A model generated the notes under the pieces. The model made no database searches and was not told the origin of the DNA. It worked only from the letters and a program-made list of their open reading frames with translations. Made by a program: the position numbers and the translations under genes. From an uncultured Nitrospirota bacterium (GTDB lineage Bacteria; Nitrospirota; Nitrospiria; 2-01-FULL-66-17): DNA of 64,000 nt. The stretch spans positions 11,842-75,841 of the forward strand of contig CAZMYW010000019.1 of the NCBI GenBank assembly GCA_964570625.1, given 5' to 3'. This document shows positions 48,311-63,929 of the stretch, one piece after another (the first letter of the stretch is position 1; each line of letters begins with the position of its first letter).

Positions 48311-48604
48311 TTACTTCGGGAAAATCGTGTTCCAGTCCTTCTTCATGTCCACCACCGTCCAGCCCTTGGCCTTCGCCTCGTCCAGCGCCTTGTCGAGTTG
48401 ACCGATGTGTGACTTGCGGTCGTAGGCCCATTCGCGCTCGGCATCGGTGTGGTGAACGACCAGGGCGAAACGTGGGCCGCTCCCGGAGGTCGCCCATTGG
48501 AGCATCTGCAAATCGCCGTCGGAGTTGCCGAAGGCCGCGATCGGACGGCGGCCGATGTGCATGAATTCGGCCTTCCCGAAGTTCTTATGCCCTGGCAGCA
48601 TCAT
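48311..48604 (-). pseudogene. 5'-truncated HAD-hydrolase gene fragment (C-terminal 97 codons), paralog of 49974..50984
   Basis: The protein ..IGRRPIAAFGNSDGDLQMLQW..DAEREWAYDRKSHIGQLDKALDEAKAKGWTVVDMKKDW aligns with the C-terminus of the full-length HAD protein. Nucleotide identity to the full gene is about 80%. Confidence 0.6.
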
Positions 48605-48660: not shown

Positions 48661-49830
48661 ATGCAGGCCATGCTCGAGCGTTCCGGACACTTGGCCATCC
48701 TGCAGCGCCTGCTCCGGCAGTTTCCGGTGGTGGGTTTGATCGGCGCGCGACAGGTCGGCAAGAGCACGCTCGCACGCGCGTTGGTCGAGCGGGCCGGCGG
48801 GCGAGCGGCGTTCTTCGATCTCGAGGACCCCCGAGCGCTGGCGCGTCTCGACGCGCCCATGCTCGCCCTTGAAGGGCTCAGGGGCTTGGTCGTGCTCGAC
48901 GAGATCCAGCGCCGGCCCGACCTCTTCCCGGCGCTGCGCGTGCTGGCGGACCGACCCCGTCGCCCCGCGCGCTTCCTTGTGCTCGGCAGTGCTTCGCCGC
49001 CGCTCTTGCGTCAGAGCTCCGAGACGCTCGCCGGGCGCATCGCCTACCACGAACTCTTCGGGTTCGATCTGTCCGAGGTCGGACCGCGGGCGCTCGAGCG
49101 GCTGTGGCTTCGAGGCGGGTTCCCGCTGTCGTTCACCGCCAGAACGGAGGCGGCAAGCTTCCTCTGGCGCCGACAATTCATCGCGACGTTCGTCGAGCGG
49201 GAGATTTCGGAGCTGGAGCTGCGTCTCTCGCCCGCCGTCATCGGGCGCTTCTGGAACATGCTCGCTCACTATCACGGGCAGACCTGGAACGCGGCCGAGC
49301 TCGCTCGGGCTTTCGGCGTGTCGGAGAAGACCGTGCGTAGCTATCTCGATTTTCTGGTCGCGACGTTCGTCGCGTTTCGCCTGCCTCCCTGGCACGAGAA
49401 CGTCGGCAAACGCGAGGTCAAGGCGCCCAAGGTTTACCTCTCCGACAGCGGGCTGCTGCATGCCATGTTCGGCGTGAGTACGCGCGATGATTTGCTCGGA
49501 CATCCGAAACGCGGCGCATCCTGGGAAGGCTTCGCGATCAGCCAGGTCATCAGCCGCCTCGGCGCCCATCCCCGGGAGTGCTTCTTCTGGGGTCTCCACT
49601 CCGGAGCGGAGCTCGACCTTCTGGTGATGCGCGGGCTGGTGCGCCTGGGCTTCGAGGTGAAACACACGGATGCACCCGAGGTGACGCCCTCGATGCGCTC
49701 CGCGCTCGACAACCTGCGACTGTCCCATCTCTACGTCATCCATGCGGGCAAAGAAACATTCTCGCTGGGACCGAAGATCACGGCATTGCCCCTCGGTCGC
49801 GTGTGGACGGACCTCGGCGAGATCAGGTGA
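48661..49830 (+). CDS. AAA+ ATPase with C-terminal DUF4143 (PD-(D/E)xK-like) domain, copy 1
   Basis: It has a Walker A GARQVGKST, Walker B VVLDEIQ, and ..KAPKVY.., GFEVKHTD (E-x-K). Confidence 0.75.
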   Translation: MQAMLERSGHLAILQRLLRQFPVVGLIGARQVGKSTLARALVERAGGRAAFFDLEDPRALARLDAPMLALEGLRGLVVLDEIQRRPDLFPALRVLADRPRRPARFLVLGSASPPLLRQSSETLAGRIAYHELFGFDLSEVGPRALERLWLRGGFPLSFTARTEAASFLWRRQFIATFVEREISELELRLSPAVIGRFWNMLAHYHGQTWNAAELARAFGVSEKTVRSYLDFLVATFVAFRLPPWHENVGKREVKAPKVYLSDSGLLHAMFGVSTRDDLLGHPKRGASWEGFAISQVISRLGAHPRECFFWGLHSGAELDLLVMRGLVRLGFEVKHTDAPEVTPSMRSALDNLRLSHLYVIHAGKETFSLGPKITALPLGRVWTDLGEIR

Positions 49831-49973: not shown

Positions 49974-50984
49974 TTACTGCTTTTCGAACGCGAACACGCG
50001 TTTCCAATCCGCCTTCATGTTCACGACCGTCCAGCCCTTCGCCTTCGCCTCGTCGAGCGCCTTGTCCAACTGCCCGACGGATGACGCGCGGTCGTACGCC
50101 CATTCGCGGTCGGCATCGGTGTGGTGGATCAGCCCCATAAAACGCGGCCCACTTCCCGCAGCCGTCCACTGCAGCATCTGCAGGTCACCGTCGGAGTTGC
50201 CGAAGGCCAAGATCGGACGCCGCCCGATGAACTTGTGGATGCCCACCGGCTTGCCGGCCTTGTCGTCGATGAAGTCGATCTCGGGCAGACGCATCAGCAC
50301 CGGCTTGCCGTCGCGTAGATCAAGCTTGGTCTTGATGCTGCTGCCGACCACCTGCTCGGGCGGGATGCCATACACTCTCTCCGTCCACGGCCGCATGAAC
50401 TCGATGCCGCCCCCGGACACGATGAAGGTCTTGAACCCGTTGGCCCGGAGATAGGCCAGCAGGTCAAGCATGGGCTGGTACACCATTTCGGTGTAACGGC
50501 GTTTGGTCTTCGGATGCCGGGCGATCATGATCCAGTCCGTGACAGCCTGCTCGAACTCCTGAGTGGTCATGCCCGCGTGCGTGGCCATCACGATTTCGAG
50601 GATCGCTCGTTCACCACCCGCAAGCGCGCCTTTCACGTCGCCTTTCAGCAGCGAGGCGAACGGCTCCTTGTCCTTCCACTCCGGGTGTTGCGGCGCGAGC
50701 GCCTTGACCCGGTCGAGCGCGAACGCGAGCTGAAAATACATGGGCTGTTCGGCCCAGAGCGTGCCGTCGTTGTCGAAAACCGCGATGCGTTCGGCAGGCG
50801 GGACGAAGTCCGGCGAGCCGTCCTTGGTCACCTTCGCAACGAATTGAGTGACGGCCTTCTTGGCCGCCCCGTCGTTCCACGAGGGAAGCGGATCGGCCGT
50901 CTGCGCGTGTGCAGTCGTCGCAACGGCGCCCATCAGCATGTACGCGAGGGCGGCGATGAGGTTTCGCGTACGGGTGGTTTTCAT
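49974..50984 (-). CDS. HAD-superfamily hydrolase (HAD-IB/PSP-like phosphatase), secreted
   Basis: It has motif I VFDNDGTLW, a C-terminal GNSDGDLQML motif and the signal peptide MKTTRTRNLIAALAYMLMGAVATTAHA (shared module). Confidence 0.65.
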   Translation of the reverse strand: MKTTRTRNLIAALAYMLMGAVATTAHAQTADPLPSWNDGAAKKAVTQFVAKVTKDGSPDFVPPAERIAVFDNDGTLWAEQPMYFQLAFALDRVKALAPQHPEWKDKEPFASLLKGDVKGALAGGERAILEIVMATHAGMTTQEFEQAVTDWIMIARHPKTKRRYTEMVYQPMLDLLAYLRANGFKTFIVSGGGIEFMRPWTERVYGIPPEQVVGSSIKTKLDLRDGKPVLMRLPEIDFIDDKAGKPVGIHKFIGRRPILAFGNSDGDLQMLQWTAAGSGPRFMGLIHHTDADREWAYDRASSVGQLDKALDEAKAKGWTVVNMKADWKRVFAFEKQ

Positions 50985-51203
50985 CGTTGTGTCCTCTCGG
51001 GGTTGGTTGTTACTCGGTTTCTTCGTGCACTTTTTTCCAATCGGTGTTTCATTGCTCCCGATCATGGTGGGGGAATATGCCTTGAAAAGTCGGTGGGATC
51101 AACCGAGTTTTCAAGGTCCAATTTCGACCGAATATGGCATGTCGTTACCCCCACCGCACGCGAAGGCGAGCGCGACGGCGTCGAAGCATGGCCCTGACCG
51201 TCG

Positions 51204-51929
51204 CTACTCTTTCAGCTTGATCGGCTTCACGCGAATGACACCCGCGGTGACGGTGGCTGACACGCCTGCGTCGGTGATGAAATGGACCGAATATCCCTTA
51301 TCCGTTCCAACGTCACCGCTCCCCGCGCCGCCCGCAGCACCTGTCTCTCCAACCTTGGCGGCCGCTTCTGCGCCGGCCTGCGCCTCCCATTCACCCTTGA
51401 TAAAATGCTTGAACTTCTTTTCATCCTGAAAGATCAACACAGGCCGTACGCTTCTCGCTCCCCAGCCTCCACCGATATCGAACCGCTCCATTTTGATGTA
51501 GGTCTTTTCTTCGGTCTTCGTCTCGATCGCCACGCCGTATCCGCTGCCTGCTCCGACAACCGGGATCTTCGTGATCTTGTTGTTCATGATCGCGTAGCCA
51601 ACGGACCTCTCTATCGCTTCCTTGGTCTTCGGTTCCTGCGTGTACAAGTCGGACAGCGTTCGCTCGACCAGCTCGTCGATCGTTTGCTCCTGCTCCGCGC
51701 CTGTTTTGCCGGGCACGCCGGCACAGCCGAACATGCCGACGACAAGGAACCACAGGCTAAAACCGGTCAGTGCGGTTGATCTCAGGTACAGCCTCCTCTG
51801 AGTGGGCGTTAAAGCCGGCACACCCACAAGCGCAGCGGCGATGAGGTCATACTTGTGTGCGGTTTTCACCGTTGTGTCCTTTCGCCAACGAGCGGTGGCG
51901 ATGAGATTTTGTGTGCAGGCGATTTTCAT
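51204..51929 (-). CDS. hypothetical lipoprotein (Gly-rich; SYLF/Ysc84-like?)
   Basis: The 5' end carries a tandem duplicated signal-peptide module; the second start is GTG 51870, [19 protein letters not shown]. It has a lipobox FGCAG. Confidence 0.45.
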
Positions 51930-52357
51930 CGTTGTATCCTTTCGGTGATGTTTCGTGACCTACTTTCCACCGCTCGCATTTCCCGCTCGTTCCGAAGGCC
52001 CGCCATGCACCAAACGGCCATCGCCGCGTGAAGGACCACGGCCGGCCAGAGGCCGATGCCGGAGAGCCCCAAGCCGGTGCCGGTATAACCGAGCACCGCG
52101 ACGGCGCCGGTGTTGTAGAGCAACATGGCCGCGACCAATCCTCCCGCTACGCGGTTCTGCGCGTCGTTGCGCGCCAGCCAGCAGGCGAGTGCCAGCGCCA
52201 GCAGCGCCGCGCCGGCCAACCGGGCCACCACCAAGCCGCCGGGCGTGTCGAGAGATGTACCGAGCAGCACCGACGCCATCACCGATGGCGCGATCATCAG
52301 CCCCAGGCCGGCGCCCAGCTCAATCAGGGCCGTCACGATGAGCAGCGTTCTCATCAC
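51926..52357 (-). CDS. small 4-TM membrane protein (paralog of 53434..53883)
   Basis: 143 aa, hydrophobic. Its stop overlaps the next start (ATGA). Confidence 0.5.
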
Positions 52358-52502
52358 ATCATACTCAACCTATCGCCCCGTGCCCCTCGAACATCTCGAA
52401 CTTCGGGAGGCACTCAATGGTCATCCTGTGAATTCCAACGGACACTTCCCTTGCCAATTGCCAAATCTCAAGCTTCTTATAGCTCATCACCCACCCTCAT
52501 TC

Positions 52503-52655
52503 GGGATTCGTGATCCGGGATGCGAGATTCGCGATCCGAGATTCGAGATTTGCAGTGCTTGATCCGAGATGCGTGATTCGCGATTCGGAATATCTCGCAT
52601 CCCGCATCCCGTTTCTCGCATCTCGCAACTCGCATCCCGTATCTCGTATCTCGAC
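52503..52655. repeat. ~150-bp imperfect palindrome built from ~11 tandem 7-bp units per arm (GAT[T/C/G]CGN ... NCG[C/T]ATC)
   Basis: Left arm: gattcgt gatccgg gatgcga gattcgc gatccga gattcga ... gatccga gatgcgt gattcgc gattcgg. Right arm: cgcatcc cgcatcc cgtttct cgcatct cgcaact cgcatcc cgtatct cgtatct. It lies immediately 3' of gene 52658..53437. Confidence 0.7.
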
Positions 52656-52657
52656 AG

Positions 52658-53437
52658 TTACTTTGTGAGGGTCAACGGCTGCGTCAACGTCACGTCCGCC
52701 ACCGTACCGGCAGGAACCTTGAGGTTATTTCCTGGTCCCAGCAGCCCCACGCCGGCGCCGATCATGGCCCCTTTGCCGGCGCCAGACCCCCCGTCAACAG
52801 CTCCCCCGATGAGCGCGCCGGCAGCGGCTTTCCGAACAACCTTGCCCCCCTCGCTCTCAGCGCCGATGTGGCCGGTCGCGATCGGCACGAGCTGGTCGTT
52901 GATACTCAAATCGGTGAAGGTCATCATGATCGCCGCCTTGCCGACGCGCCTTCCGCCGATTGATTCCGTCACCGTGCCGAATACCTTGGTCCCCTTGGAG
53001 ACGATGACTGATCCGCCGCTCGCGAGATCGGTGTCCAAGACGCCGGTCACCCGGCTCCCCTTCTTGTGCGACGCCGTGCTCACGTCATGATCCAGCTTGA
53101 CCATGAGCCGCGTGCCCACCGGCAATGTCCCTGCCGCAGTCTGCGCCCCCGGAGCAGGGGTAGGCGCCGCGGGGGCTGGCGCCGATGCGGCGCGAGGCGA
53201 GTTGAAGGTGACGGACATGATGTCGGTGATGGCATAGGTCTGAACCACGCCCCCAGCCTCGACGACGACCGTCGCGTCGTTTCCGCCCTTGAACAATCCC
53301 TGCACGACCCGGCCGTCCTTGAGCATGATGGTATCGGCGCCGGCGGGTCCGGCTGCGAACAGCACTGCGACCAGACCGGTTTGCACAATAGTCCTGATTC
53401 TTTTCCTGTCATAAGCTCCGAGAGAGAACCGGTTCAT
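52658..53437 (-). CDS. hypothetical secreted protein (Gly/Ala-rich C-terminal half)
   Basis: It has a signal peptide and a [11 protein letters not shown] linker. Its start overlaps the upstream gene's stop. Confidence 0.45.
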
Positions 53438-53883
53438 GGCTGTGCTCCTTTCATGTGGTTCATTCGGTCGCGTTCACCCGCGTGCCGAAGGCACGCAACG
53501 CACCAGCCGGCCATCGCCGCGTGAAGAAGTACTGCCGGCCAAAGACCGACGCCGGAGAGTCCCAAATCTAGACCTGCAAAACCGAGGACCGCAACAGCGG
53601 CCGCGTTATAGAACAGCATGGCCGCGACCAGCCCCATGGTTGCGCGGCTCTGTGGGTCGTTACGCGCCAGCCAGCAGGCGATGCCCAGCGAGAGCAGCGC
53701 CGCCCCCGCCACACGGGCCACCACCACTCCGGGCGTGTCGAGCGATGTGCCGAGCAGCACCGGCGCCAGCACCGACGGTGCGATCACGAGCCCCAGGCCG
53801 GCTCCCAGCTCAATCACTGCGGTCGCGATGAGTAGCGTCCTCACGGGAATATCTGTTTCCAGTCTTGCTTCATATCCCACCAC
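53434..53883 (-). CDS. small 4-TM membrane protein (paralog of 51926..52357)
   Basis: About 70% aa identity to the 51926 ORF (..[32 protein letters not shown]..). Confidence 0.5.
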
Positions 53884-53913
53884 GGTCCCGGCGTTCGCCG
53901 TCGCTTCGCGCGA

Positions 53914-54207
53914 CTATTGGGCCGGAATGGTGATCAAGGGCAGCTTCTCGTTGCCGCCGGTGTCCGCCAGCGTGAAGAAAAACATGATCGCTGTCATCGC
54001 GCGCTTCGTTTGCCGGGCTTGAGCCGCTCCGGCTCCTTCCGCCACTACATCGGGGAATCCTGGACCGTCGGTCCGGCGACGCTGGCGGAGGGCGTTGGCG
54101 GAAAGGGCAACACGGAGCCGTCGTCGGCTGCCTGAGCTACGTCCGCTGTGAGCCAGCACGCAAGCGAGCGCGGCGGCGATGAGGATCGGCGTGTGGGTGG
54201 TTGTCAT
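53914..54207 (-). pseudogene. chimeric gene remnant: shared signal-peptide module + unrelated Arg-rich middle + last 33 codons of the 57009..58133 lipoprotein gene
   Basis: The C-terminal KRAMTAIMFFFTLADTGGNEKLPLITIPAQ is identical to the 57009 gene's C-terminus. About 100 nt are near-identical, including the downstream non-coding region. Confidence 0.6.
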
Positions 54208-54243
54208 GGTTCTGACCTTTCGGTGGTTGGCAGGATTTTCCCA

Positions 54244-55398
54244 TTAGGAGACTCCACGAAGGTGTTTTATCTTTTCAAAATCACATATTGAAATGACCTG
54301 AATGCGTTCACCCAAGTCATAATTTTCTTTCCCAGGGTAAATAACGAATAATTTTTCTAACTTTAAATCATGCACGGCAATTCGCATGGATGGTGTGAGG
54401 CTTGGACGATCACTGAGCTTGATCTCAAAGCCAATTTTTCTTCCATTCTTAAGAAAGAGAAGATCCAATTCCGCCCGATTATGGGTTGCCCAAAAATAGG
54501 CGGCATCCGGTTGTACCTGTTTGAATAAGTCCTCAATCACATATCCCTCCCAGGACATCCCGCGCTTCGAATGATCTCTAAAGTCTTTCTCGTTTTGAAT
54601 TCCAAGCAGCAAGTGTAAAAGTCCTGAATCACGGACATACACCTTGGGCGCCTTCACCTGTCGTTTGCCAAGATTTTCGTGCCATGGCTGAAGCTGACGC
54701 ACCATCAAAAGATGATCCAGATAATCCAGATATTTTCGTACCGTCGGCTGGCTCACTCCGAGCGATGACGCGGGATCAGCCGCGTTCCACATCTGACCAT
54801 GGCTGTGAGCCAGCATCGTCCAAAATCGGCGGAACATTGGCGCCGGTATGTTGAGTCCCATCTGTGGGACATCCCGCTCAAGAAACGTTTGAACAAATTC
54901 CTTACGCCAGGCGTAACTGATTGCATTGGTGCCGGCAAGAAATGACTGTGGAAATCCCCCACGGAACCAATGTGTTTTTAGTTTGCGATGCGTCGCCTCT
55001 TTGAGCGAAAAACCGCTCATGAAAATCGTTTCAACCCTTCCGGCAAGGGACTCGGACGACTGTTTTAAAAGCGCCGGACTTGCACTGCCTAAAATTAAAA
55101 ACTTGGCAGGCAATGGTTTGCGGTCTGAAAGCACGCGCAATAATGGGAACAGCTCCGGTTTACGATGAATTTCATCAATCACGACAAGTCCGCGAAGCCC
55201 CGCGAGCTCCGATTTGGCGTCTTCAAGACGCACCAAATCATCCGTGTCTTCCAAATCAAAATAATTCTTCTTCTCCGCAGATAAAAACTGCCGAGCAAGG
55301 GTTGTTTTGCCGCATTGACGCGGCCCCAGCAACACCACAACTCGGCTACGCTGAATCGCTTTTTGAACGTGTTCGATCAATTGTGGCCGTTTAATCAC
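54244..55398 (-). CDS. AAA+ ATPase with DUF4143 domain, copy 2 (low-GC, probably horizontally acquired)
   Basis: It has a Walker A GPRQCGKTT, Walker B VVIDEIH, KAPKVY and GFEIKLSD. Local GC is visibly about 45-48% against about 62% in the flanks. Confidence 0.75.
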   Translation of the reverse strand: MIKRPQLIEHVQKAIQRSRVVVLLGPRQCGKTTLARQFLSAEKKNYFDLEDTDDLVRLEDAKSELAGLRGLVVIDEIHRKPELFPLLRVLSDRKPLPAKFLILGSASPALLKQSSESLAGRVETIFMSGFSLKEATHRKLKTHWFRGGFPQSFLAGTNAISYAWRKEFVQTFLERDVPQMGLNIPAPMFRRFWTMLAHSHGQMWNAADPASSLGVSQPTVRKYLDYLDHLLMVRQLQPWHENLGKRQVKAPKVYVRDSGLLHLLLGIQNEKDFRDHSKRGMSWEGYVIEDLFKQVQPDAAYFWATHNRAELDLLFLKNGRKIGFEIKLSDRPSLTPSMRIAVHDLKLEKLFVIYPGKENYDLGERIQVISICDFEKIKHLRGVS

Positions 55399-55704: not shown

Positions 55705-56895
55705 TCAGAACAATAGGACCTTGATCAGGTAGTCCACGACCTTCTCGAGCGGAACCATCGTCAGCGTGAGCGGCAGCAACGGCGCGGCCGTCACCACGGC
55801 GAGCCGCAGCACCACCTCTTTCCCGAACGGCACCCGCCGCATCTCGCGCACCACCGCGTAGCTGTTCCCGAGGTCGGCCAGCGACTGGATATCGCTGCTG
55901 CCCAACAGGCCCTCGTCCTTCGGCGCGCCTCCGCGGATCCACTTCGCCTCGAATTCCCGCACGTACCGGTTGACCAGCGAGCCGTACTCGCGCCGGCCCT
56001 GCCGCCACGCGCGCGTGAGGTGCGGCGTGAACAGGACAAGCGGGCTGAGGATGACCAGCACGAAGAAGGACACAAAGGCGACGATGTCGAGCTTGAAGGC
56101 CAACAGGCTCTGTCCCTCGAAAAAAATCCGGTTGGCGATCATCCCGGCGAGCAGGACGCCGTGGGCGAACAGGATTGCCTCAAAGGCGTAGGCGGTGTTG
56201 TCCAGAAACCCCATTCCACCGGTTCGATCCGCGTGGGTCGGTACGAGGTGCAGGTTCAATCGCGAAACGCGCCACACAAACCATATCCAGACGAAGAACC
56301 GCAGATACCACTGAAAGAAGATGAACTGAAAAAGCGGAATGCTCACAAAGACGTACCAGGACCCGGCGAGCGTCAGGGTGAGGCCCGCGCCCTCCGGGTG
56401 TGCAGACCAGGTCGCGGAATCAAGCGCGACTTGGGTTCTCCACAGCCACTGTCCCACCGTATAGACGAATACCGCCAACCCGCTTTGCACGATGACCGAG
56501 TTGACCACCCGCATGACCGAGTCGATCGCCGCGCGGAACGCCGGTCGATCTTCGGGAATCACGATGCCCCGGTCCACGAGCTGGTGGACCACGGATTGGA
56601 GCCGATTATGGGAGATCCGATCGGCGATGATCAGCACCGGCAGTGCAAGCAGATATCGGAGGTGCGCCTCGAAGTCGTACAGGAACGGAACCGTGATGGA
56701 GCCGCCCAGCGCGTGACCTTCGAGCGCCGACAGCAGCAGCAGCGGTAGCCACGCGATCAGGGCAATAAGTGCGACTCGTCGCCCCGCACGCCCTAGTTGG
56801 GGATCGGCGACCCCCGTCCGCAGGCACAGCCGATAGAGCGGCCCCTGCACCAGCGAGAACTCGGGCAACTCCTGGGAAGGCTCAGGATGAGTCAT
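55705..56895 (-). CDS. hypothetical polytopic membrane protein
   Basis: It has about 8 TM helices. Its start lies 3 nt downstream of the 57009 gene, so they are probably co-transcribed. Confidence 0.45.
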   Translation of the reverse strand: MTHPEPSQELPEFSLVQGPLYRLCLRTGVADPQLGRAGRRVALIALIAWLPLLLLSALEGHALGGSITVPFLYDFEAHLRYLLALPVLIIADRISHNRLQSVVHQLVDRGIVIPEDRPAFRAAIDSVMRVVNSVIVQSGLAVFVYTVGQWLWRTQVALDSATWSAHPEGAGLTLTLAGSWYVFVSIPLFQFIFFQWYLRFFVWIWFVWRVSRLNLHLVPTHADRTGGMGFLDNTAYAFEAILFAHGVLLAGMIANRIFFEGQSLLAFKLDIVAFVSFFVLVILSPLVLFTPHLTRAWRQGRREYGSLVNRYVREFEAKWIRGGAPKDEGLLGSSDIQSLADLGNSYAVVREMRRVPFGKEVVLRLAVVTAAPLLPLTLTMVPLEKVVDYLIKVLLF

Positions 56896-57008
56896 TCGCG
56901 GCTCCACACACGGTAGGTGATATCGTCCATCATTGATGCAGGTGCCCCCAGGGTCCCGCCTTTCACCGTCGCTTCGCTCGGCACATTCATCTGGTGTGGT
57001 TCGCACGC

Positions 57009-58133
57009 CTATTGCGCCGGAATGGTGATCAAGGGCAGCTTCTCGTTGCCGCCGGTATCCGCCAGCGTGAAGAAAAACATGATCGCCGTCATCGCGCGTT
57101 TCGTTTTCCAGTCGCCGTCATCGATCCAGAACCAATAGTCGCGGTAATACACAGCGGCAAACGCGTCTACCGGCTTGTCCTTTCCGCTGTGAATTCGCAC
57201 CACGTCCCGCCGGGTCTCCGCGGAGGCGTTTTCGAAGTTGGGCAGCGCGCGGTGGGCCTTCAGGTGCGCCTCGGGCACGTCCAGATAGCTGGCGAACGCT
57301 CCCATGATTTGTAGCATCGAGCGGCTGTTGACAGCCAGTTCGCCCTCCGCCCCACGCCCCGGCGAATAGGTGAGCACGAACTTTTGCCCCTCGGCGGGCA
57401 TCTTGAGCAACCGCCGGACTTCTGCCGCCTTTTCCAGGATGTCGGCGGGCACGTCCTCACGCCGGAAGAACACGACGCCGGTTGAGCCTTTGGCCTTGTC
57501 CTCCTCCACGCGCATCCCGACAGCGCCAGCGGCCTGCACCTCGCGCAGCAATTCCAGCGCGCGCACAAACTCCGGGTCCGCCTCCCGCACCGCGCCGCCC
57601 GTCGTCGAACGATTGCGCACCCCGTTGAGCGACTCGACGGTCAGGCCCAGAATGAAGTTCGCCGGGTAACCCGATTGCAGCATAAAGAAAATGTTCTTCG
57701 GATCAATCGGCGTGATCAACCCGCGCAAAAACTTTTCCCCGGTCATCGGCACGTAGGTGATGGTGGGCCGGTCGGTGTAGATGGCCTGCGCCCCCGCCGA
57801 CATAAAATTGCCCTGGATCGCATTTTTGGACGAGACGGTGCCGCCGACGTTCACGCCGGTCTGCAACGAGTAGCCGGCGACGATGGACGCCACGTCCACA
57901 AACACCGGCAGGTCCATGTAGCGCAGCTTGACGATGTTCAGCAGCGTCTGCTGTTTCCACGAATCGGCGATGGCCGTGCTGTAGTCGAAACGGTCCACCG
58001 TCATGGTCTTGGGACCGAGGTGCGTGCAGCCGGCGAACAGCGCCGCCGCGAGACACAGGCTCAGTTTCGTTGCAGCGAGGCCATGGAAGCGGCGCGCGTC
58101 GGCCAGGAGGTTTGGTGTGCGTGTGGTTTTCAT
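57009..58133 (-). CDS. hypothetical lipoprotein
   Basis: It has the shared module MKTTRTPN.. and a lipobox LFAGC. It is about 375 aa. Confidence 0.5.
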   Translation of the reverse strand: MKTTRTPNLLADARRFHGLAATKLSLCLAAALFAGCTHLGPKTMTVDRFDYSTAIADSWKQQTLLNIVKLRYMDLPVFVDVASIVAGYSLQTGVNVGGTVSSKNAIQGNFMSAGAQAIYTDRPTITYVPMTGEKFLRGLITPIDPKNIFFMLQSGYPANFILGLTVESLNGVRNRSTTGGAVREADPEFVRALELLREVQAAGAVGMRVEEDKAKGSTGVVFFRREDVPADILEKAAEVRRLLKMPAEGQKFVLTYSPGRGAEGELAVNSRSMLQIMGAFASYLDVPEAHLKAHRALPNFENASAETRRDVVRIHSGKDKPVDAFAAVYYRDYWFWIDDGDWKTKRAMTAIMFFFTLADTGGNEKLPLITIPAQ

Positions 58134-58170: not shown

Positions 58171-59589
58171 TCACTTCGGCGGAGTGTAAGGATCAGGCGT
58201 GCCCATCGGAATGAGCGGATACTTTTTCACGCTCTGCTCGAACGCGCCCACGATTTTCAGAACCGGACCAACCACCCACGAATCCGCCGTTGGCTTCTCT
58301 TCGCGCGGATCGGTGTAGAGGTTGTAAATGGTCGGCGTAGGGTTCTTGACCGGCGGATCGAACATGGTGTCCTGGCGCATGAAATGCAATTTCCAGTTAC
58401 GCCACTTCACTGCTTGCAAACGTTCTGCTCCCCAGACTGGGAAACCTTCCCGCGCCGACTTTTCGGTCTTGCCGAGGAAAAAGGCAGACTGATCAATGCT
58501 GTCGAACGGCCGATCCATGGGTACTTTGGCACCGCTGAATCTGGCGAGTGTCGCAAATAAATCCACGCCATGCACAATCTCGTTGCTTACGCGTTCGGCG
58601 GCGATCTTACCGGGCCAGCGAATCAGGAAGGGCACGCGAATGCCGCCCTCGAGTGCGGTGAAATACGCGCCACGCCAAGGGCCGGCCCAACCGTCCCAAG
58701 GCTTGAGGAATTAGGCCCCATTGTCGCTGGTGAAGATGAAGATCGTGTTGTCGCGCACGTTCGCCTTGTCTACCGCGTCGAGAATCTGGCCGACGTTGGC
58801 ATCCATTTCGGCAAGCATGTCCGCCCAGTCCCCGTTGCCGGTCTTGCCGGCGAAGGCAGGATTCGGCAGTGTGGGCAAGTGCGGCTGAGTAAGCGCCACA
58901 TAGGCGAAGAACGGCTTGCCGGACTTGGCCCCCCGCTCGATGAACGCGACCGAGCGCCGGGTGATTTCCGCATCAATGAGTCGCCGCTGCACCACATCGT
59001 AAATTCCCAACTCGCGGCTCTTCTCGCTCTTCTTGCCTTCCATCATGTGTTCCGCCGGCATAATGTCGGAGGACCATCCGGGCGAAGTTGGCCAGAGCGA
59101 TTCATCCGTCGTGCGCGGGATGCCGAACCACTCGTCGAAACCCTGGTCGTTGGGCAACCGTCCGTCGTGACTGCCGAGATGCCACTTACCGTAGTAGCCG
59201 GTCGCGTAGCCCGCGTCCGACAGCGCCTCGCCGATGGTCACTTCCCACTGCGTGAGGCCGTCGGCCACACCGCCAAACGGCACGGAATGGGTGCCCGAGC
59301 GGATCGCCCACCGGCCGGTCATCAGGCTGGAACGGCTCGGCGTGCACTGCGTCTCCATGTTCATGTTCAGCAGGCGTAGGCCCTCTTTGGCGAGACTGTC
59401 AATGCGCGGGGTGGCTGCGCCGCGTGTGAGTCCCCCGCCGTAACTGCCGATTTCGCCGTATCCAAGATTGTCGGTCAGGATGAAGACGATGTTGGGTTTG
59501 TCCGCTGCGTGGGCAGCGGTCGAGGTGATGAACGCCAGCACGCCAACGAGCGCGGCGGCGATGAGGCTTTGGTCGTTTTTGGTTTTCAT
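58171..59589 (-). pseudogene. arylsulfatase gene interrupted by a single in-frame TAA (plus-strand TTA at 58711..58713)
   Basis: The N-terminal ORF 58711..59589 carries the CTPSRSSLMTGR formylglycine motif. The C-terminal ORF 58171..58635 is in the same frame. The frame reads ..FTSDNGA*FLKPWDGW.. whereas the intact paralog reads ..FTSDNGGEFVKPWDGW... Confidence 0.7.
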
Positions 59590-59677
59590 GGTTGTGTCCT
59601 TATCAGTGATTGATTGGTTTGTTCACTTCACCTTTTCGATGTCCGGTGGCGGCCAGCGCGTTGTCGCACCACGGCGT

Positions 59678-60919
59678 TCATAGCTGTGACCACGGCAGGG
59701 CAGTCACCCGGTCGGTGAGCGCCAGCGGGGCAGAGCAGCGGCAAATGACGTAGCCGTGCCGGGCACGTTTCGGGTGTTCGTCCAGAAACGTCAGCAGATG
59801 TCGCGCGTCGCCGGACGTAGGGTGCTCGGTCCATTTCACTTCGATGGGAATGAGCCGGCCGGCGCGGGCAATGATGAAATCCACTTCCGCGCCCGCCTTG
59901 GTGCGCAGGTAATGCAGTTTGCCGCCGCCCAGATATTGCAGACGTTTCCACAACTCAATGCCCACCCATTGCTCAAACACGGGTCCGGGATTCGCTCGGA
60001 TCGCGGCGGCTTCCAACGGCAAATCGGCAGCGGCATTGCGAACGCCGACGTCGAAAAAGCAAAACCGCTCCGTGGACAGCAGGCTCTTGCGCGGACTCCC
60101 AGAAAATGCCGTCACCCGAAACCCGAGGAACATGTCTTCGAGCAACTGATAGTAGGTCTTCACCGTCGGCAGGCTGACCCCGGCCTCGCGGGAAATCCCG
60201 GCGTAGTTGATCATCCGGCCGGACTCGGCGGCGGCCAGTTGCAGGAACCGGGAGAAGGCCGGCCAGTTTTTCACCAGCGCCTCGCGCCGCAGCTCCTCCT
60301 CCAGATACACCACCGTGTAGGCGCGCAAGAGATCGGCGCGATGAGCATGAGTGGCGGTCGCCACGCCGGGCAGCTCGCCAAATGTGAGCCGCTCGAACAA
60401 GTCGGCGGCGGCGAACCGACGCTCATCCACCGCCCCGCGCGCGGGCATCGGCAACGGCGACTCGGCCCGCATCTTCCCGGCGCCGGCCGGCGGGCGCTCC
60501 GCCAGCAGCAGCGGATACAAATGATGCAGGAAACTGCGCCCCGGCAGCAGGTTCGCGCCCGTCACGCGTAGCTTGCGGGCGGAACTGCCACACAACACAA
60601 AACGCCACCGACGCTTGTCGGAATCGTAGAGATGCTGCACCGCGTCGAAGATCGCCGGCACGTTTTGCGCCTCGTCCACCACGACCGTCGCGGGGCGTCG
60701 CGATTTCGGCAGCGCCCGGCACCGCTGGACGAGCAGATCGGGGTTGCGCAGGTATTCGGCGCGTTCGGCGGGCCGGGAGAAATCCAGCCAGACCGGCGGC
60801 TCCGGCAGCAGTTTGTGCAGCAACGTGGACTTGCCGGTCTGGCGCGCACCGAACACGAGATGCACGTATGGCGCGGCAAGTTTCTTCTTCCACAGCGGTT
60901 CGACCCAGCGACCAAACAT
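59678..60919 (-). CDS. AAA+ ATPase with DUF4143 domain, copy 3 (divergent subfamily)
   Basis: It has a Walker A GARQTGKST, Walker B VVVDEAQ and ..DFIIARAGRLIPIEVKWTE (D..E-x-K). Confidence 0.7.
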   Translation of the reverse strand: MFGRWVEPLWKKKLAAPYVHLVFGARQTGKSTLLHKLLPEPPVWLDFSRPAERAEYLRNPDLLVQRCRALPKSRRPATVVVDEAQNVPAIFDAVQHLYDSDKRRWRFVLCGSSARKLRVTGANLLPGRSFLHHLYPLLLAERPPAGAGKMRAESPLPMPARGAVDERRFAAADLFERLTFGELPGVATATHAHRADLLRAYTVVYLEEELRREALVKNWPAFSRFLQLAAAESGRMINYAGISREAGVSLPTVKTYYQLLEDMFLGFRVTAFSGSPRKSLLSTERFCFFDVGVRNAAADLPLEAAAIRANPGPVFEQWVGIELWKRLQYLGGGKLHYLRTKAGAEVDFIIARAGRLIPIEVKWTEHPTSGDARHLLTFLDEHPKRARHGYVICRCSAPLALTDRVTALPWSQL

Positions 60920-60980: not shown

Positions 60981-61052
60981 TTAGACGACAAGGAGCGCCA
61001 ACGCGCCAACGAGCGCGGCGGCGAGGAGGGTTGGTCTGACCGTGGCTTTCAT
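60981..61052 (-). other. orphan copy of the shared RBS+signal-peptide module encoding only MKATVRPTLLAAALVGALALLVV*
   Basis: ggaggaaacagacATGAAAGCCACG..CTCCTCGCCGCCGCGCTCGTTGGCGCGTTGGCG is followed by a stop. It lies between ATPase 3 and the 61079 gene. Confidence 0.5.
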
Positions 61053-61078: not shown

Positions 61079-61894
61079 TCACTTCGGGAACAGAAACGTG
61101 ACGCCGGCGCGAAGGCCGAGACCCTCCGGCCCGTTGTCCGGCGACTCGACCCAGTACCGCGCGCCCGCAAAAACCTGGAGGATCTGCGGGCCGACTTTCA
61201 GCAACTGCGACACCGTCGCATTCACCGGCACCGACCATTGGTCGTTCTCCCAGTCGTAGGTGGACTCCGTGTTGAGACCGAGAGTGGTTTTGGTCTTCGT
61301 GATGTAGGAGATAAACGGCTGTACGAAACTCAGGCTGATGTCTGCGCGGTCATCCTGGCCCGTGAGCGACCAGATCTGATTGGCCAACAGGCCGTAGGTC
61401 CAGCCGTTCTTCTGTTGCAGCGCCAGCACCGTCGGCCCCGCGCCCCACTTGCCGCCGCCGAGCACGTCGTCGGACGCCGTGGGATAGAGTCCCACCGGGC
61501 CGACCGCCAGAATCCACCCGCCGACCGGTTGCTTGGGAGAGAAGAAGAAACTCTGCACGATGTCGCCCAGGCCCGACTCACTGGAGCCCGGGGGCACGTT
61601 ATCGGCGTTCACCAACGGCACAATCGTCCGCGTGATGAGGTTCCAATCCTCGTTCAGCGAAAACGGCCAGACCGGCTGGACATTCAGCACGGACTTGGAT
61701 CCTTCATCGTTCGGGCCGATGTTCTCGTCGTAGTTGTACTGTAACGGCACGCTGATGAGCGCCGCCACCGGGTTCGCCAGTTTCTTCGCCAGCTCCGCCG
61801 CCTCGTCCCCCTCCTGCGCCTCTGCACCGGCGGCGACGGCCAGCACGCCAACGAGCGCGGCGGCGATGAGGTATTTTATGCGTTTGGTTTTCAT
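61079..61894 (-). CDS. exported/outer-membrane protein, hypothetical
   Basis: It has the shared module [26 protein letters not shown] and a C-terminal ..GVTFLFPK. The track ORF is extended to 62059. Confidence 0.5.
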   Translation of the reverse strand: MKTKRIKYLIAAALVGVLAVAAGAEAQEGDEAAELAKKLANPVAALISVPLQYNYDENIGPNDEGSKSVLNVQPVWPFSLNEDWNLITRTIVPLVNADNVPPGSSESGLGDIVQSFFFSPKQPVGGWILAVGPVGLYPTASDDVLGGGKWGAGPTVLALQQKNGWTYGLLANQIWSLTGQDDRADISLSFVQPFISYITKTKTTLGLNTESTYDWENDQWSVPVNATVSQLLKVGPQILQVFAGARYWVESPDNGPEGLGLRAGVTFLFPK

Positions 61895-61922
61895 GGTTGT
61901 GACTTCTCCTTGGTCGATTGTT

Positions 61923-62444
61923 TCAAAATGCAGCGACGCGTTGGATGACCCAGAACATGGCGACACTGCCGATGGCATACGGAGGAATGCGCCAGGCCCA
62001 CGCCGGCTGGAAGAAGTCGGTGAACATCCCGATGACGTTCGGCGGGGCATACACGACAAGTGGCCCGGTTTCCTTGAGGTCGAGGTAACTCATCGAGTAA
62101 ATCACGTCGCAGTTCGGCGTGGGTACCCAGGTCTTGGCGTTCATCCGGTCTTTCCAGATCGGCAGCACGTTGTAGCCTTTGCCGAACTTCGCCTCCGAGC
62201 CGTCGCGCATGCCGATGGTATTCAAGATGGGCAGCGTCTGCATGTAAGCCTCTATGCCCCGCTGCTGGAGGCGCTCTTGATTCAACTGCTCGACGGCCGC
62301 CCGATCCGGCCAGGTGCCGTTATACATTTGCTTCACGAGCGGTGGCATGTCGCCTTGCGCCTGCACAACGGTGGTTGTGAAAGCCAGTGCGCTGACGAGC
62401 GCGGTGACGAGGAGAGTTTTTGTTTTCATTTTTGTGATTTTCAT
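61923..62444 (-). CDS. DUF1254-like secreted protein (short; possibly truncated)
   Basis: It has a signal MKITKMKTKTLLVTALVSALAF and YNVLPIWKD..KTWVPTPNCDVIYSMSYLDLKETGPLVVYAPP. Confidence 0.4.
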   Translation of the reverse strand: MKITKMKTKTLLVTALVSALAFTTTVVQAQGDMPPLVKQMYNGTWPDRAAVEQLNQERLQQRGIEAYMQTLPILNTIGMRDGSEAKFGKGYNVLPIWKDRMNAKTWVPTPNCDVIYSMSYLDLKETGPLVVYAPPNVIGMFTDFFQPAWAWRIPPYAIGSVAMFWVIQRVAAF

Positions 62445-62504: not shown

Positions 62505-63929
62505 TCACTTCGGCGGCGTGTAAGGGTCCGGCGTGCCCATCGGGATGAGCGGATTGTCTTTCATGGTCGCATTGAACGCGCCCACTATTTTCAACATCGG
62601 AGTCACCACCCAAGTATCCACGGTCGGCTTCTCCTCGCGCGGGTCGGTGTAGAGGTTGATGATGAAGGGAATCCCAAGCTTCACCGGCGGATCGTACATC
62701 GTGTCCTGCCGGTAGAAGTGCAACTTCCAGTTGCGCCACTTCACGGCGGTCAGGCGGTCCGCGCACCAGATGGGGAAACCCTCGCGGGCCGACTTCTCGG
62801 ATTTGCCAAGCAGGAAATCGGACTGATCCACGCTGTCCATGGGCCGATCGTTGGGCACCTTGGCGCCGCCAATCCTCGCGAGTGTCGCGAACATGTCCAC
62901 GCCATACACGATCTCGTTGCTGACGCGCCCGGCGGGCACCTTCCCCGGCCAGCGGATCATGAACGGCACGCGAATCCCGCCTTCCAGCGCGGTGAAATAC
63001 TGGCCCCGCCACGGACCCGACCAGCCGTCCCACGGCTTGACGAATTCCCCGCCGTTATCGCTGGTGAAAACCACGATGGTATTGTCGGCGATGCTGAGTT
63101 TGTCCACGGCATCAAGCATCTGCCCGACGTTGCTGTCCATCTCGGCCAGCATGTCCGCCCAATCGCCGTTGCCCGTCTTGCCTTTGAAAGCCGGGTTCGG
63201 TTCGGTGGGCAGATGCGGCTGGGTCAGGGATGCATACATGAAGAACGGCTTGCCCGCCTTGGCCTGCCGCTCCATGAACGCCACCGAGCGCTTGGTGATT
63301 TCGGCATCGATGAGCCGGCGCTGAACGATGTCGTAGTCCTTCAAGGCAACACTCTTCCCGCCTTTTTTGCCCTCCATGATCTTTTCCAGCGGCACAATGT
63401 CCGGCGAGTAGCCAACCGAGGATGACCACAACGCCTCATCCGTCGTGCGCGGGATGCCGTACCACTCGTCGAAACCCTGATCGTTCGGCAGACGGCCATC
63501 GTGGCTGCCAAGATGCCACTTGCCGTGCAACGCCGTGGCGTAACCGGCCGCAGAAAGTGCCTCAGCCACCGTAACTTCCCATTGGGTCAAGCCTTCGGGC
63601 ACGCCACCAAATGGAACCGCATAGGTGCCGGAGCGGATGGCAAAGCGGCCGGTCATGAGACTGGAGCGGCTCGGCGTGCATTGCGTCTCCATGTTCATGT
63701 TCGTGAGGCGCAGTCCTTCACTGGCGAGCTTGTCGATGCGCGGCGTAGGCGCTCCCCGCGTGGCTCCGCCGCCGTAGACGCCCAATTCGCCATAGCCCAG
63801 GTTATCCGCCAGGATGAAGAGGATGTTGGGTTGCTTGTCCGCTGCTTGGGCCGGAGCGAGGATGCCGAATACTGCCAGCGCGCAAACGAGCGCGGCGGCG
63901 ATAAAAATTCGGGTATGGAGGGTTTTCAT
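62505..63929 (-). CDS. arylsulfatase (formylglycine-dependent), intact paralog
   Basis: 474 aa with CTPSRSSLMTGR, GKWHLG and the shared signal module MKTLHTRIFIAAALVCALA. Confidence 0.85.
   Translation of the reverse strand: MKTLHTRIFIAAALVCALAVFGILAPAQAADKQPNILFILADNLGYGELGVYGGGATRGAPTPRIDKLASEGLRLTNMNMETQCTPSRSSLMTGRFAIRSGTYAVPFGGVPEGLTQWEVTVAEALSAAGYATALHGKWHLGSHDGRLPNDQGFDEWYGIPRTTDEALWSSSVGYSPDIVPLEKIMEGKKGGKSVALKDYDIVQRRLIDAEITKRSVAFMERQAKAGKPFFMYASLTQPHLPTEPNPAFKGKTGNGDWADMLAEMDSNVGQMLDAVDKLSIADNTIVVFTSDNGGEFVKPWDGWSGPWRGQYFTALEGGIRVPFMIRWPGKVPAGRVSNEIVYGVDMFATLARIGGAKVPNDRPMDSVDQSDFLLGKSEKSAREGFPIWCADRLTAVKWRNWKLHFYRQDTMYDPPVKLGIPFIINLYTDPREEKPTVDTWVVTPMLKIVGAFNATMKDNPLIPMGTPDPYTPPK

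Follow-up and report, generated by a model that had tools for sequence, protein, structure and literature searches.

On the minus strand of the window (the whole 64,000-nt stretch of DNA that was analysed), three gene relics stand one behind the other, immediately upstream of an intact membrane-protein gene at 53844-53434. A 97-aa open reading frame (ORF) runs through parts of the first two relics, and an intact lipoprotein gene, denoted copy B, carries the counterpart of the second. The features of the locus are as follows.

57009..58133, minus strand: intact lipoprotein gene (copy B); the lipoprotein relic corresponds to its last 33 codons (57012-57110)
56926..56980, minus strand: sequence 3' of copy B that is homologous to the lipoprotein relic's flank (75% to 53858-53912, past a 27-nt indel)
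54244..55398, minus strand: low-GC ATPase gene with AAA_14 and DUF4143 domains (from Pfam and the GC profile)
54231-54012, minus strand: relic (i), from an ~800-aa arylsulfatase gene, comprising its 5' module, its signal peptide and the first ~38 codons of the mature part
54208..54231, minus strand: upstream part of the shared 5' module, with a Shine-Dalgarno-like GAAAGGTCAGAACC before the ATG (72-78% to 50934-51006, 59534-59612, 61839-61914 and others)
54152..54207, minus strand: ATG and the n- and h-regions of the signal peptide (MTTTHTPILIAAALACVLA), the coding part of the 5' module, resembling the N-termini of neighbouring genes
54129..54153, minus strand: 25-nt interval holding a net +1/-2 nt frameshift from the signal-peptide frame to the sulfatase frame (three-frame translation)
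54012..54127, minus strand: arylsulfatase mature N-terminus in the +1 frame (DDGSVLPFPPTPSASVAGPTVQDSPM*WRKEPERLKPG, the asterisk being a stop), read as an "Arg-rich" linker in the ATG frame; 84% nt identity to L161
54045..54047, minus strand: TAG nonsense codon in the sulfatase frame, AAG (Lys) in intact homologues (nt alignments to L160 and L161)
54012..54014, minus strand: sulfatase/lipoprotein junction, where the partners share GG(C) as microhomology and the sulfatase frame is lost (three-way comparison of the window, the L161 sulfatase and copy B)
54014-53914, minus strand: relic (ii), what is left of a second lipoprotein paralogue, its last 33 codons (~341-374, QTKRAMTAIMFFFTLADTGGNEKLPLITIPAQ) and its TAG stop, 93.6% to 57000-57109
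53912-53841, minus strand: relic (iii), ~70 nt remaining from the 3' end of a HAD-like hydrolase gene and interrupted by a 1-nt indel, 77% to 48317-48380 (E = 3.4e-7)
53434..53844, minus strand: intact gene for a 136-aa membrane protein, downstream of the remnant (paralogue at 51926-52357)

The 97-aa ORF (53914-54207, minus strand, from the ORF list) leads from the copy of the shared 5' module into the lipoprotein tail, which is read in its native frame. The first ~80 nt of the ORF are part of this module, a combined ribosome-binding and signal-peptide element that occurs in 11 or more copies in direct orientation, with about a dozen secreted-protein genes. The module consensus GGACACAACSATGAAAACC is found eight times in the window against 0.03 occurrences expected by chance, and 54152-54229 is 72-78% identical to at least six other gene starts. 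The first-pass annotation had described an in-frame fusion behind a copy of this module; the fusion is there, and the module is real. The source record lists the ORF as a gene (P0138), Pfam and NCBIfam hold no family for it, and the fused ATG-frame product matches nothing except itself in a database of 5.8 billion proteins. No promoter-like site lies upstream of the remnant, where a promoter and terminator scan stays at background level, and Rfam finds only a tRNA, far off.

Between the module and the lipoprotein tail, the ATG frame encodes a basic linker (SGRSSGSRRRLRVALSANALRQRRR...) that was at first taken for a junk Arg-rich segment. That description has to be replaced, as the segment is the out-of-frame 5' end of an ~800-aa arylsulfatase and its Arg-rich look comes from reading the sulfatase in the wrong frame. 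In three-frame translation, the +1 frame of the minus strand reads ...LACWLTADVAQAADDGSVLPFPPTPSASVAGPTVQDSPM*WRKEPERLKPG. A tblastn search with this peptide, run on the loci around lipoprotein homologues, gives significant matches only at the N-termini of ~795-aa arylsulfatases, and those in L022 (VLPFPPRQSGSIAGRTIQES) and L047 are the first residues past the arylsulfatase signal peptide. An HMM made from seven big-sulfatase N-termini has its top six-frame match of the whole window at the 54012-54127 site. Among the 5.8 billion proteins, the frame-corrected peptide has 16 matches at E<=0.02, the best at 5e-14; the sulfatase-like protein matches are P0121-P0137, P0122 and P0124 (...ADGSILPFPPVPSASVAGPTLQESTMKWRKEPERLKPGAPNVLIVLIDDVGFG...) belong to them, two bear the JGI name arylsulfatase, and those at E = 5e-14 to 1e-8 run on into ...LKPGAPNVLIVLIDDVGFG. 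The short database entries that match the peptide are frameshift-split calls of full-size sulfatases (L160, L161).

The nucleotide alignment gives the same identification. Over 116 nt, 54127-54012 is 84% identical to the 5' end of the split ~790-aa sulfatase of L161, and the alignment stops exactly at the junction (...AAGCCCGGC / ...CTCAAGCCCGGC). Twelve of the 18 nt differences fall at third positions of the sulfatase frame, with a dN/dS of 0.12, which means that the DNA of this segment evolved as sulfatase coding sequence. In an intact homologue, the catalytic domain PF00884 (Sulfatase) starts one residue past the end of the fragment, at the next residue but one (APNV...). The fragment is therefore a signal peptide plus a ~38-residue pre-domain leader and nothing further.

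The middle of the remnant is thus homologous to the signal peptide and leader of the ~800-aa arylsulfatase class, which is marked by PF00884 and the N-terminal motif VLPFPPxPSxSxAGxT. Unlike these enzymes, it ends one residue short of the catalytic domain and carries both a frameshift and a nonsense mutation; it is no sulfatase. The remnant's TAG stands where P0121-P0124 read MKWRKEP or MTWRKEP. A search for a functional arylsulfatase was likewise negative, with no Pfam match for the 97-aa ORF and a fragment that ends ahead of PF00884 position 1. The length of the frameshift interval was compared with the paralogous module at 59589 by direct reading of the sequence. It is this frameshift, in the c-region of the signal peptide, that brings ATG and tail into one reading frame, the tail's native one, and so gives rise to the 97-aa ORF. 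The single-base frameshift could be an assembly error, and the sequence is probably from a metagenome-assembled contig.

The two partners meet abruptly. Sulfatase homology stops at 54012 (...CCCGGC) and lipoprotein homology starts at 54014, so that sulfatase codon ~66 is joined to lipoprotein codon ~341 through 2-3 nt of microhomology, and 340 of the 374 lipoprotein codons are missing from the remnant. Around the junction, the remnant reads GGCAAACGAAG, copy B GGAAAACGAAA and L001 TGGCAAACGAAA, the last showing TGGCAAACG at the corresponding lipoprotein position. Reading across the joint in the sulfatase frame gives ...LKPGKRSAR*. The partners have GG or GGC alone in common, which is the signature of illegitimate joining.

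Two other ways of making such a joint can be weighed here. The source is apparently a 76-kb contig from an uncultured organism and the region is rich in repeats, which would suit a chimeric join during metagenome assembly. However, misjoins induced by repeats fall inside the shared repeats, whereas here 2-3 bases are shared between unique sequences, and the other lesions of the region are of the substitution type and are not assembly errors; a misassembly is highly improbable. The second is recombination between two of the shared 5' modules with deletion of the gene interior, as the first-pass annotation had proposed. Modules in direct orientation are numerous, and a deletion is indeed the simplest origin of the remnant. 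The novel joint, however, lies outside the module, at ~190 nt past the ATG and in unrepeated sequence, and exchange between modules does not explain a breakpoint in that position. After the module comes ~115 nt of its own sulfatase gene, with the frameshift alone in between. In addition, the remnant's module is just 72-78% identical to the others, and no other module in the window exceeds 78.5%, which gives no sign of recent exchange between them. There is scarcely any likelihood that module recombination produced the remnant.

The lipoprotein tail is a near-copy of the end of copy B. A blastn search within the window aligns 53905-54014 with 57000-57109 over 110 ungapped nt at 93.6% identity (103/110, E = 1.4e-43), and a repeat search of the window pairs the same intervals at 94%. 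Compared base by base, they differ at 7 positions and are identical over stretches of up to 41 nt; the two copies are spaced 3095 nt from start to start. The repeat holds codons ~341-374 (the last 33-34) of the lipoprotein gene, its TAG stop and a further 9 nt 3' of the gene, and by tblastn the relic tail is 97% identical in amino acids to lipoprotein residues 343-374. The repeat is followed by a 27-nt indel and then by ~55 nt of flank at 75%. The first-pass annotation had noticed this near-identical recurrence of ~100 nt, and seen in it a chimeric remnant whose 3' end comes from the family of the 57009-58133 lipoprotein gene, to be given up if identity fell below about 85% or the sequence proved to be of low complexity. 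With 93.6% identity in sequence that is not low-complexity, its reading of the repeat is confirmed.

Nor does the repeat reflect general conservation. Over the last 99 nt, identity averages 76% in 2926 inter-genome pairs of lipoprotein genes, and only 0.03% of them reach 94%. The window copies are each other's best match over this interval, at 95%, and the runners-up are L002 (90%) and L001 (88%). The repeat surpasses family-level conservation and is no family-level artefact.

The first-pass annotation took near-identity as the mark of a recent event, which holds for one part of the history. Outside the two junction codons, the tail of the remnant (tail A) and copy B differ by 4 synonymous and 0 non-synonymous changes in 31 codons (NG86 dS 0.195). 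Had the tail been neutral since the split, ~7-20 non-synonymous changes would be expected in its ~72 non-synonymous sites; none is seen. Because the flank is only 75% identical and bears a 27-nt indel while the coding changes are all synonymous, the tails come from paralogues that diverged under protein-level selection. The lack of non-synonymous change further indicates that both tails belonged to functional genes during most of the time since they split, and that the truncation came late. Only the truncation is recent, and the two tails are diverged paralogues, not fresh duplicates. The corresponding values for the paralogous pairs of the window are given below.

Lipoprotein tail A and tail B: dS 0.195
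Membrane proteins of 136 and 143 aa, a paralogue pair: dS 0.52
HAD-like gene and its relic: dS 0.86, dN/dS 0.2

The third relic lies directly behind the lipoprotein tail. The flank of the remnant begins TAGTCGCGCGAA, likewise that of L003, where a full lipoprotein gene stands ahead of the membrane-protein gene. In a four-way alignment, 53912-53841 is matched by two other 3' ends, one from the HAD-like gene at 49974-50987 and one from the HAD relic at 48311-48604, and the HAD 3' end with which it was compared reads ...WTVVDMKKDWNTIFPK*. The TGA of the relic shares bases with the GTG at which the 136-aa membrane-protein gene starts (GTGA). The flank of copy B is the same HAD relic in a more decayed state, from which it follows that the joint between lipoprotein gene and HAD relic is older than the duplication that yielded the two lipoprotein copies.

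The lipoprotein belongs to a widespread family, with at least 3749 homologues at 70-85% aa identity across phyla, including Gammaproteobacteria (Steroidobacteraceae among them), Verrucomicrobiota, Acidobacteriota, Planctomycetota and Burkholderiales. Neither Pfam nor NCBIfam has a family for it or for the membrane proteins of 396 and 136 aa. Profile searching against the PDB sequences gives no match, and a search of a plasmid database finds the family annotated only as "hypothetical protein". AlphaFold models the lipoprotein with a pLDDT of 87.6 when 90 diverse sequences are supplied and 39 with a 32-sequence alignment. In a Foldseek search against the PDB, the model has no match at E<=0.001, the matches being local ones to long beta-hairpins.

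Across genomes, the lipoprotein is accompanied by the same set of genes in varying order. The 136-aa membrane-protein gene is elsewhere the native downstream neighbour of lipoprotein, HAD or sulfatase genes, and the following arrangements bear on the locus.

Big sulfatase followed by lipoprotein: L002, L009
Full-length lipoprotein followed by the 136-aa membrane protein: L003, L010, L018
Big sulfatase followed by the membrane protein: about ten metagenome loci
HAD-like gene followed by the membrane protein, in native arrangement: L085, L120

The adjacencies of sulfatase with lipoprotein and of lipoprotein with membrane protein occur separately, in relatives of ~80% aa identity. At L006, the order is lipoprotein, big sulfatase, decayed lipoprotein tail and membrane protein (ATGA overlap), and the tail relic there holds residues 332-374 with an in-frame TGA and several replacements; L006 is thus an independent parallel to the remnant. 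Lipoprotein tail relics with other breakpoints are also present in L029 and L033, so that the relics start at residue 281 (L029), 327 (L033), 332 (L006) or ~341 (window). No conspecific or congeneric relative that retains the intact arrangement was found; the nearest loci are CAVYZN010000014, DATBVX010000144 and CAYYQQ010000053. Exact look-ups of the lipoprotein (two start choices), the 97-aa ORF, the low-GC ATPase and P0001 matched no contig, and a metagenome scan with the downstream membrane protein gave 80 loci, none closer than 76% aa. The idea that tails are retained as expression signals for the membrane-protein gene was dropped, as a tail-only relic lies upstream of that gene in just 1 of 66 homologous loci.

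Given the identities of the pieces, the abrupt GG(C) junction, the frameshift, the change of AAG to TAG and the selection signature of the tail, the remnant is probably a non-functional composite pseudogene of a known kind that arose by microhomology deletion. Each of its pieces is homologous to an end of an intact family, the joint has minimal homology, and the pieces carry disabling lesions or have lost essential parts. The order of events is inferred, and the mosaics of more distant genomes suggest what the deleted state would have been. The ancestral order would have been sulfatase, lipoprotein, HAD-like gene and membrane protein. Most of the HAD-like gene would then have been lost, and the lipoprotein gene, together with the HAD relic, would have been duplicated to give the copy upstream of the 396-aa membrane-protein gene. 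Just before the deletion, the order would thus have been sulfatase, lipoprotein-2 (with the old HAD relic) and membrane protein. A single illegitimate, microhomology-mediated deletion of ~3.3 kb, from sulfatase codon ~67 to lipoprotein-2 codon ~340, would have fused the ends, and point lesions would have followed. The loss of lipoprotein-2 was presumably tolerated because the copy at 57009-58133 remained.

As in deletion-fused pseudogene remnants generally, the joint is an abrupt one of 2-3 nt, lesions have been added and an intact paralogue is nearby. The locus differs from them in that an accidental ORF reads the 3' piece natively behind an intact signal peptide, and in that a third and older relic, the HAD-like 3' end, is stacked behind.

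An unlikely alternative to deletion is a duplicative insertion, in which a segment from lipoprotein codon ~341 to sulfatase codon ~66, circularised through illegitimate joining, would have entered a resident lipoprotein gene by one homologous crossover within that gene's tail and flank. The segment would span the 396-aa membrane-protein gene, with the ATPase joining later, and the ~160-185-nt homologous segment would be left as a direct repeat on either side. The final structure is identical to that from deletion. A layout of full gene, insert and the gene's own 3' tail fits this model and recurs in L006, L029 and L033, with the relic of L006 and L029 closest to the neighbouring full copy; the window's own HAD-like gene has it as well (49974-50987, an ATPase and the relic 48311-48604). 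Insertion, however, needs two events where deletion needs one. The repeats have diverged (flank 75%, dS 0.2), so the donor must still have been a paralogue, and the HAD pair, at dS 0.86 and dN/dS 0.2, consists of old paralogues, unlike a target duplication. That relics lie beside full copies is also partly an effect of ascertainment, since the loci were fetched around full copies.

The direct repeats of a gene 3' end lie on both sides of a ~3-kb segment, part of which is low-GC DNA. This also brings to mind attL and attR of a site-specific integrative element that targets the lipoprotein 3' end and carries a surrogate 3' end. Integrative islands with such 3'-end duplications generally show, as here, a full gene, an insert of deviant GC and a displaced direct copy of the 3' end. 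In contrast to them, no integrase or recombinase lies between the repeats according to Pfam and NCBIfam, the segment containing only the membrane protein, the AAA_14/DUF4143 ATPase and the sulfatase stub. The relic breakpoints vary from genome to genome (codons 281, 327, 332 and 341), and the left end of the repeat, its inner boundary, is a fusion to an unrelated coding fragment of a sulfatase. The probability of an att origin is minute.

Mycoplasma vlp/vsp are multigene families of lipoproteins or surface proteins that share a 5' UTR and signal peptide, and Neisseria pilS are silent partial cassettes. In layout, which is the level of this comparison, the locus resembles them in having a ribosome-binding and signal-peptide module shared across neighbours and a partial copy nearby. 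It differs in that the genes with the module are unrelated enzymes, the one partial copy is fused to a broken sulfatase, and no conserved recombination flanks, inverted repeats or invertase are seen. A test for a silent-cassette or phase-variable system found a single partial lipoprotein copy in the 64 kb, and a repeat search around it found no paired inverted repeats beyond chance-level 20-25-mers.

The 97-aa ORF is most likely an accident of high-GC sequence and no gene. The intact tail, open ORF, intact module and intact signal peptide would also fit a young functional fusion, a small secreted protein composed of the signal peptide, the basic linker and the conserved, hydrophobic helix in which the lipoprotein family ends. 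Its tail has no non-synonymous change and no indel, residues 342-358 are predicted to form a confident helix in the AlphaFold model of the full-length lipoprotein, and the source record treats it as a gene. On the other hand, the 50-aa linker is the wrong frame of a sulfatase and its substitutions follow the sulfatase frame; the fused protein has no homologue but itself; tail-only relics upstream of the membrane-protein gene are rare and, where present, decayed; and the upstream sequence has no promoter-like site. Such a function is very unlikely, and the composite pseudogene is the preferred reading.

The stretch from 48 to 64 kb is crowded with broken genes.

48311-48604: HAD 3' relic, 84 nt from the second DUF4143 ATPase gene (48661-49830)
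58711-58713: in-frame TAA in a sulfatase gene
61052-60981: orphan module and signal-peptide ORF, 61 nt from the third DUF4143 ATPase gene (60919-59678)
61923-62444: chimeric ORF with a DUF1254 N-terminus and, fused behind it, the final 28 residues of a protein of the HupE/UreJ type

The low-GC ATPase gene has a GC content of 0.42-0.52 against 0.60-0.68 around it. The first-pass annotation had set the remnant beside this gene, which does end 36 nt upstream of the ATG of the 97-aa ORF. It lies, however, between the 396-aa membrane-protein gene (55705-56895) and the remnant's intact 5' module, upstream of the module and off the breakpoint. DUF4143 has been placed in the PD-(D/E)XK superfamily, with unknown function (PMC3424549). 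Three AAA_14/DUF4143 genes, with a domain predicted to be nuclease-like, are present within 12 kb, and two of them sit 61-84 nt from breakpoints of truncated genes. At least two chimeras of a 5' fragment with a 3' tail occur in the cluster (53914-54207 and 61923-62444). There is only a slight chance that genes of this cluster are being actively shuffled and that the remnant is a visible outcome of this.

The pseudogene itself is of little importance. Annotation pipelines will call it a hypothetical protein, as the database entry P0138 illustrates, and flagging it prevents a spurious family of "Arg-rich secreted proteins". Its by-products are more noteworthy, namely the pattern of decay, the very conserved uncharacterised lipoprotein family and the DUF4143 ATPase genes clustered at breakpoints. 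The remnant documents the stepwise erosion of a sulfatase, HAD-like, lipoprotein and membrane-protein cluster by microhomology deletions, in a gene set that recurs across several phyla. If the DUF4143 ATPases were selfish, break-inducing mobile genes, or if the chimeric ORFs were expressed, the locus would show the assembly of secreted proteins from parts.

A 5' module of ~60-80 nt, homologous among its copies, heads unrelated secreted-protein genes on the minus strand between 50930 and 63935 of the window. It comprises the ribosome-binding site and the first ~20 codons, and the copies share 72-85% identity. The genes behind it, which include those for sulfatases, a HAD-like protein, the lipoprotein and a DUF1254 protein, among others, start at 50994, 51879, 51939, 54217, 58143, 59599, 61052, 61904, 62454, and 63929 (all minus strand). 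Related loci have modules like it too: L003, where one precedes a DUF3604 gene, L091, and L127. Further broken or chimeric genes in the window, and the ATPase genes of the same region, are as follows.

Broken or chimeric genes and DUF4143 ATPase genes (window positions)
48311-48604, minus strand: 3' relic of a HAD-like paralogue (last ~87 codons)
48661-49830, plus strand: AAA_14 + DUF4143 ATPase gene
54244-55398: AAA_14 + DUF4143 ATPase gene
58171-59589, minus strand: sulfatase paralogue with an in-frame TAA, 77% amino acid identity to 62505-63929
59678-60919: AAA_14 + DUF4143 ATPase gene
60981-61052, minus strand: orphan 5' module and signal peptide without a gene body, MKATVRPTLLAAALVGALALLVV*
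61923-62444, minus strand: second chimeric ORF, DUF1254 N-terminus and HupE/UreJ_2 C-terminus

The sulfatase copy at 58171-59589 is probably a pseudogene; its TAA (58711-58713) takes the place of a GGC codon for Gly in the intact paralogue. The first part of the second chimeric ORF consists of the module, a signal peptide, and the N-terminal ~145 residues of a DUF1254 protein, with a domain match to only model positions 2-60 of 133. Its last 28 residues match the very end of the C-terminus in those HupE/UreJ_2 membrane proteins that in other loci (L147 and others) sit before the small membrane-protein gene. The HAD-like relic is 77% identical in nucleotides to the matching part of the intact gene at 49974-50987, with a dS of 0.86 and a dN/dS of 0.2.

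Three ATPase genes of the AAA_14 + DUF4143 type fall within 12 kb, one with a GC content of 42-52% in surroundings of 60-68%. Truncated genes are found 61-84 nt away from two of the three: the orphan module ends 61 nt before the high-GC gene at 59678-60919 begins, and 84 nt separate the HAD-like relic from the start of the plus-strand gene, which stands between relic and intact HAD-like gene. In L016, L038, L051, L062, and L096, this set of genes likewise has similar ATPases nearby.

The ~135-residue membrane-protein family is represented in the window at 53434-53844 and 51926-52357 (both minus strand) and in metagenome loci L080-L159, and has no Pfam match. Across 66 loci, the gene immediately upstream of a family member usually encodes a secreted enzyme; the upstream neighbors include the big sulfatase (11), a 474-residue sulfatase (9), HupE-like proteins (3), the lipoprotein (2), and HAD-like proteins (2).

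Between the genes of a 259-residue Gly-zipper protein and a 143-residue membrane protein is a heptamer-repeat array (52499-52653) of ~13 copies of ATTCGAG followed by ~9 copies of the near-complementary ATCTCGC. The array can fold into a long imperfect hairpin and has no match in Rfam.

The lipoprotein family (57009-58133, minus strand; related-genome loci L001-L079) matches nothing in Pfam, NCBIfam, or PDB sequences, and its members from several phyla share 70-85% identity in protein and 75-84% in DNA. Modelled with AlphaFold from a 90-sequence alignment (pLDDT 87.6), the protein shows a long beta-hairpin at residues 79-129 and, at 342-358, a C-terminal helix; Foldseek finds no fold match for it in the PDB at E ≤ 0.001. 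The gene often adjoins that of a ~400-residue membrane protein, likewise without a family. Three other genomes carry C-terminal relics of the lipoprotein gene, each with a full-length copy 0.8-2.7 kb upstream of it.

Lipoprotein C-terminal relics (locus positions)
L006, 13733-13861: in-frame stop; a big sulfatase on one side, the small membrane-protein gene on the other
L029, 6462-6728
L033, 3712-3855

These relics are independent, and their breakpoints are not the same.
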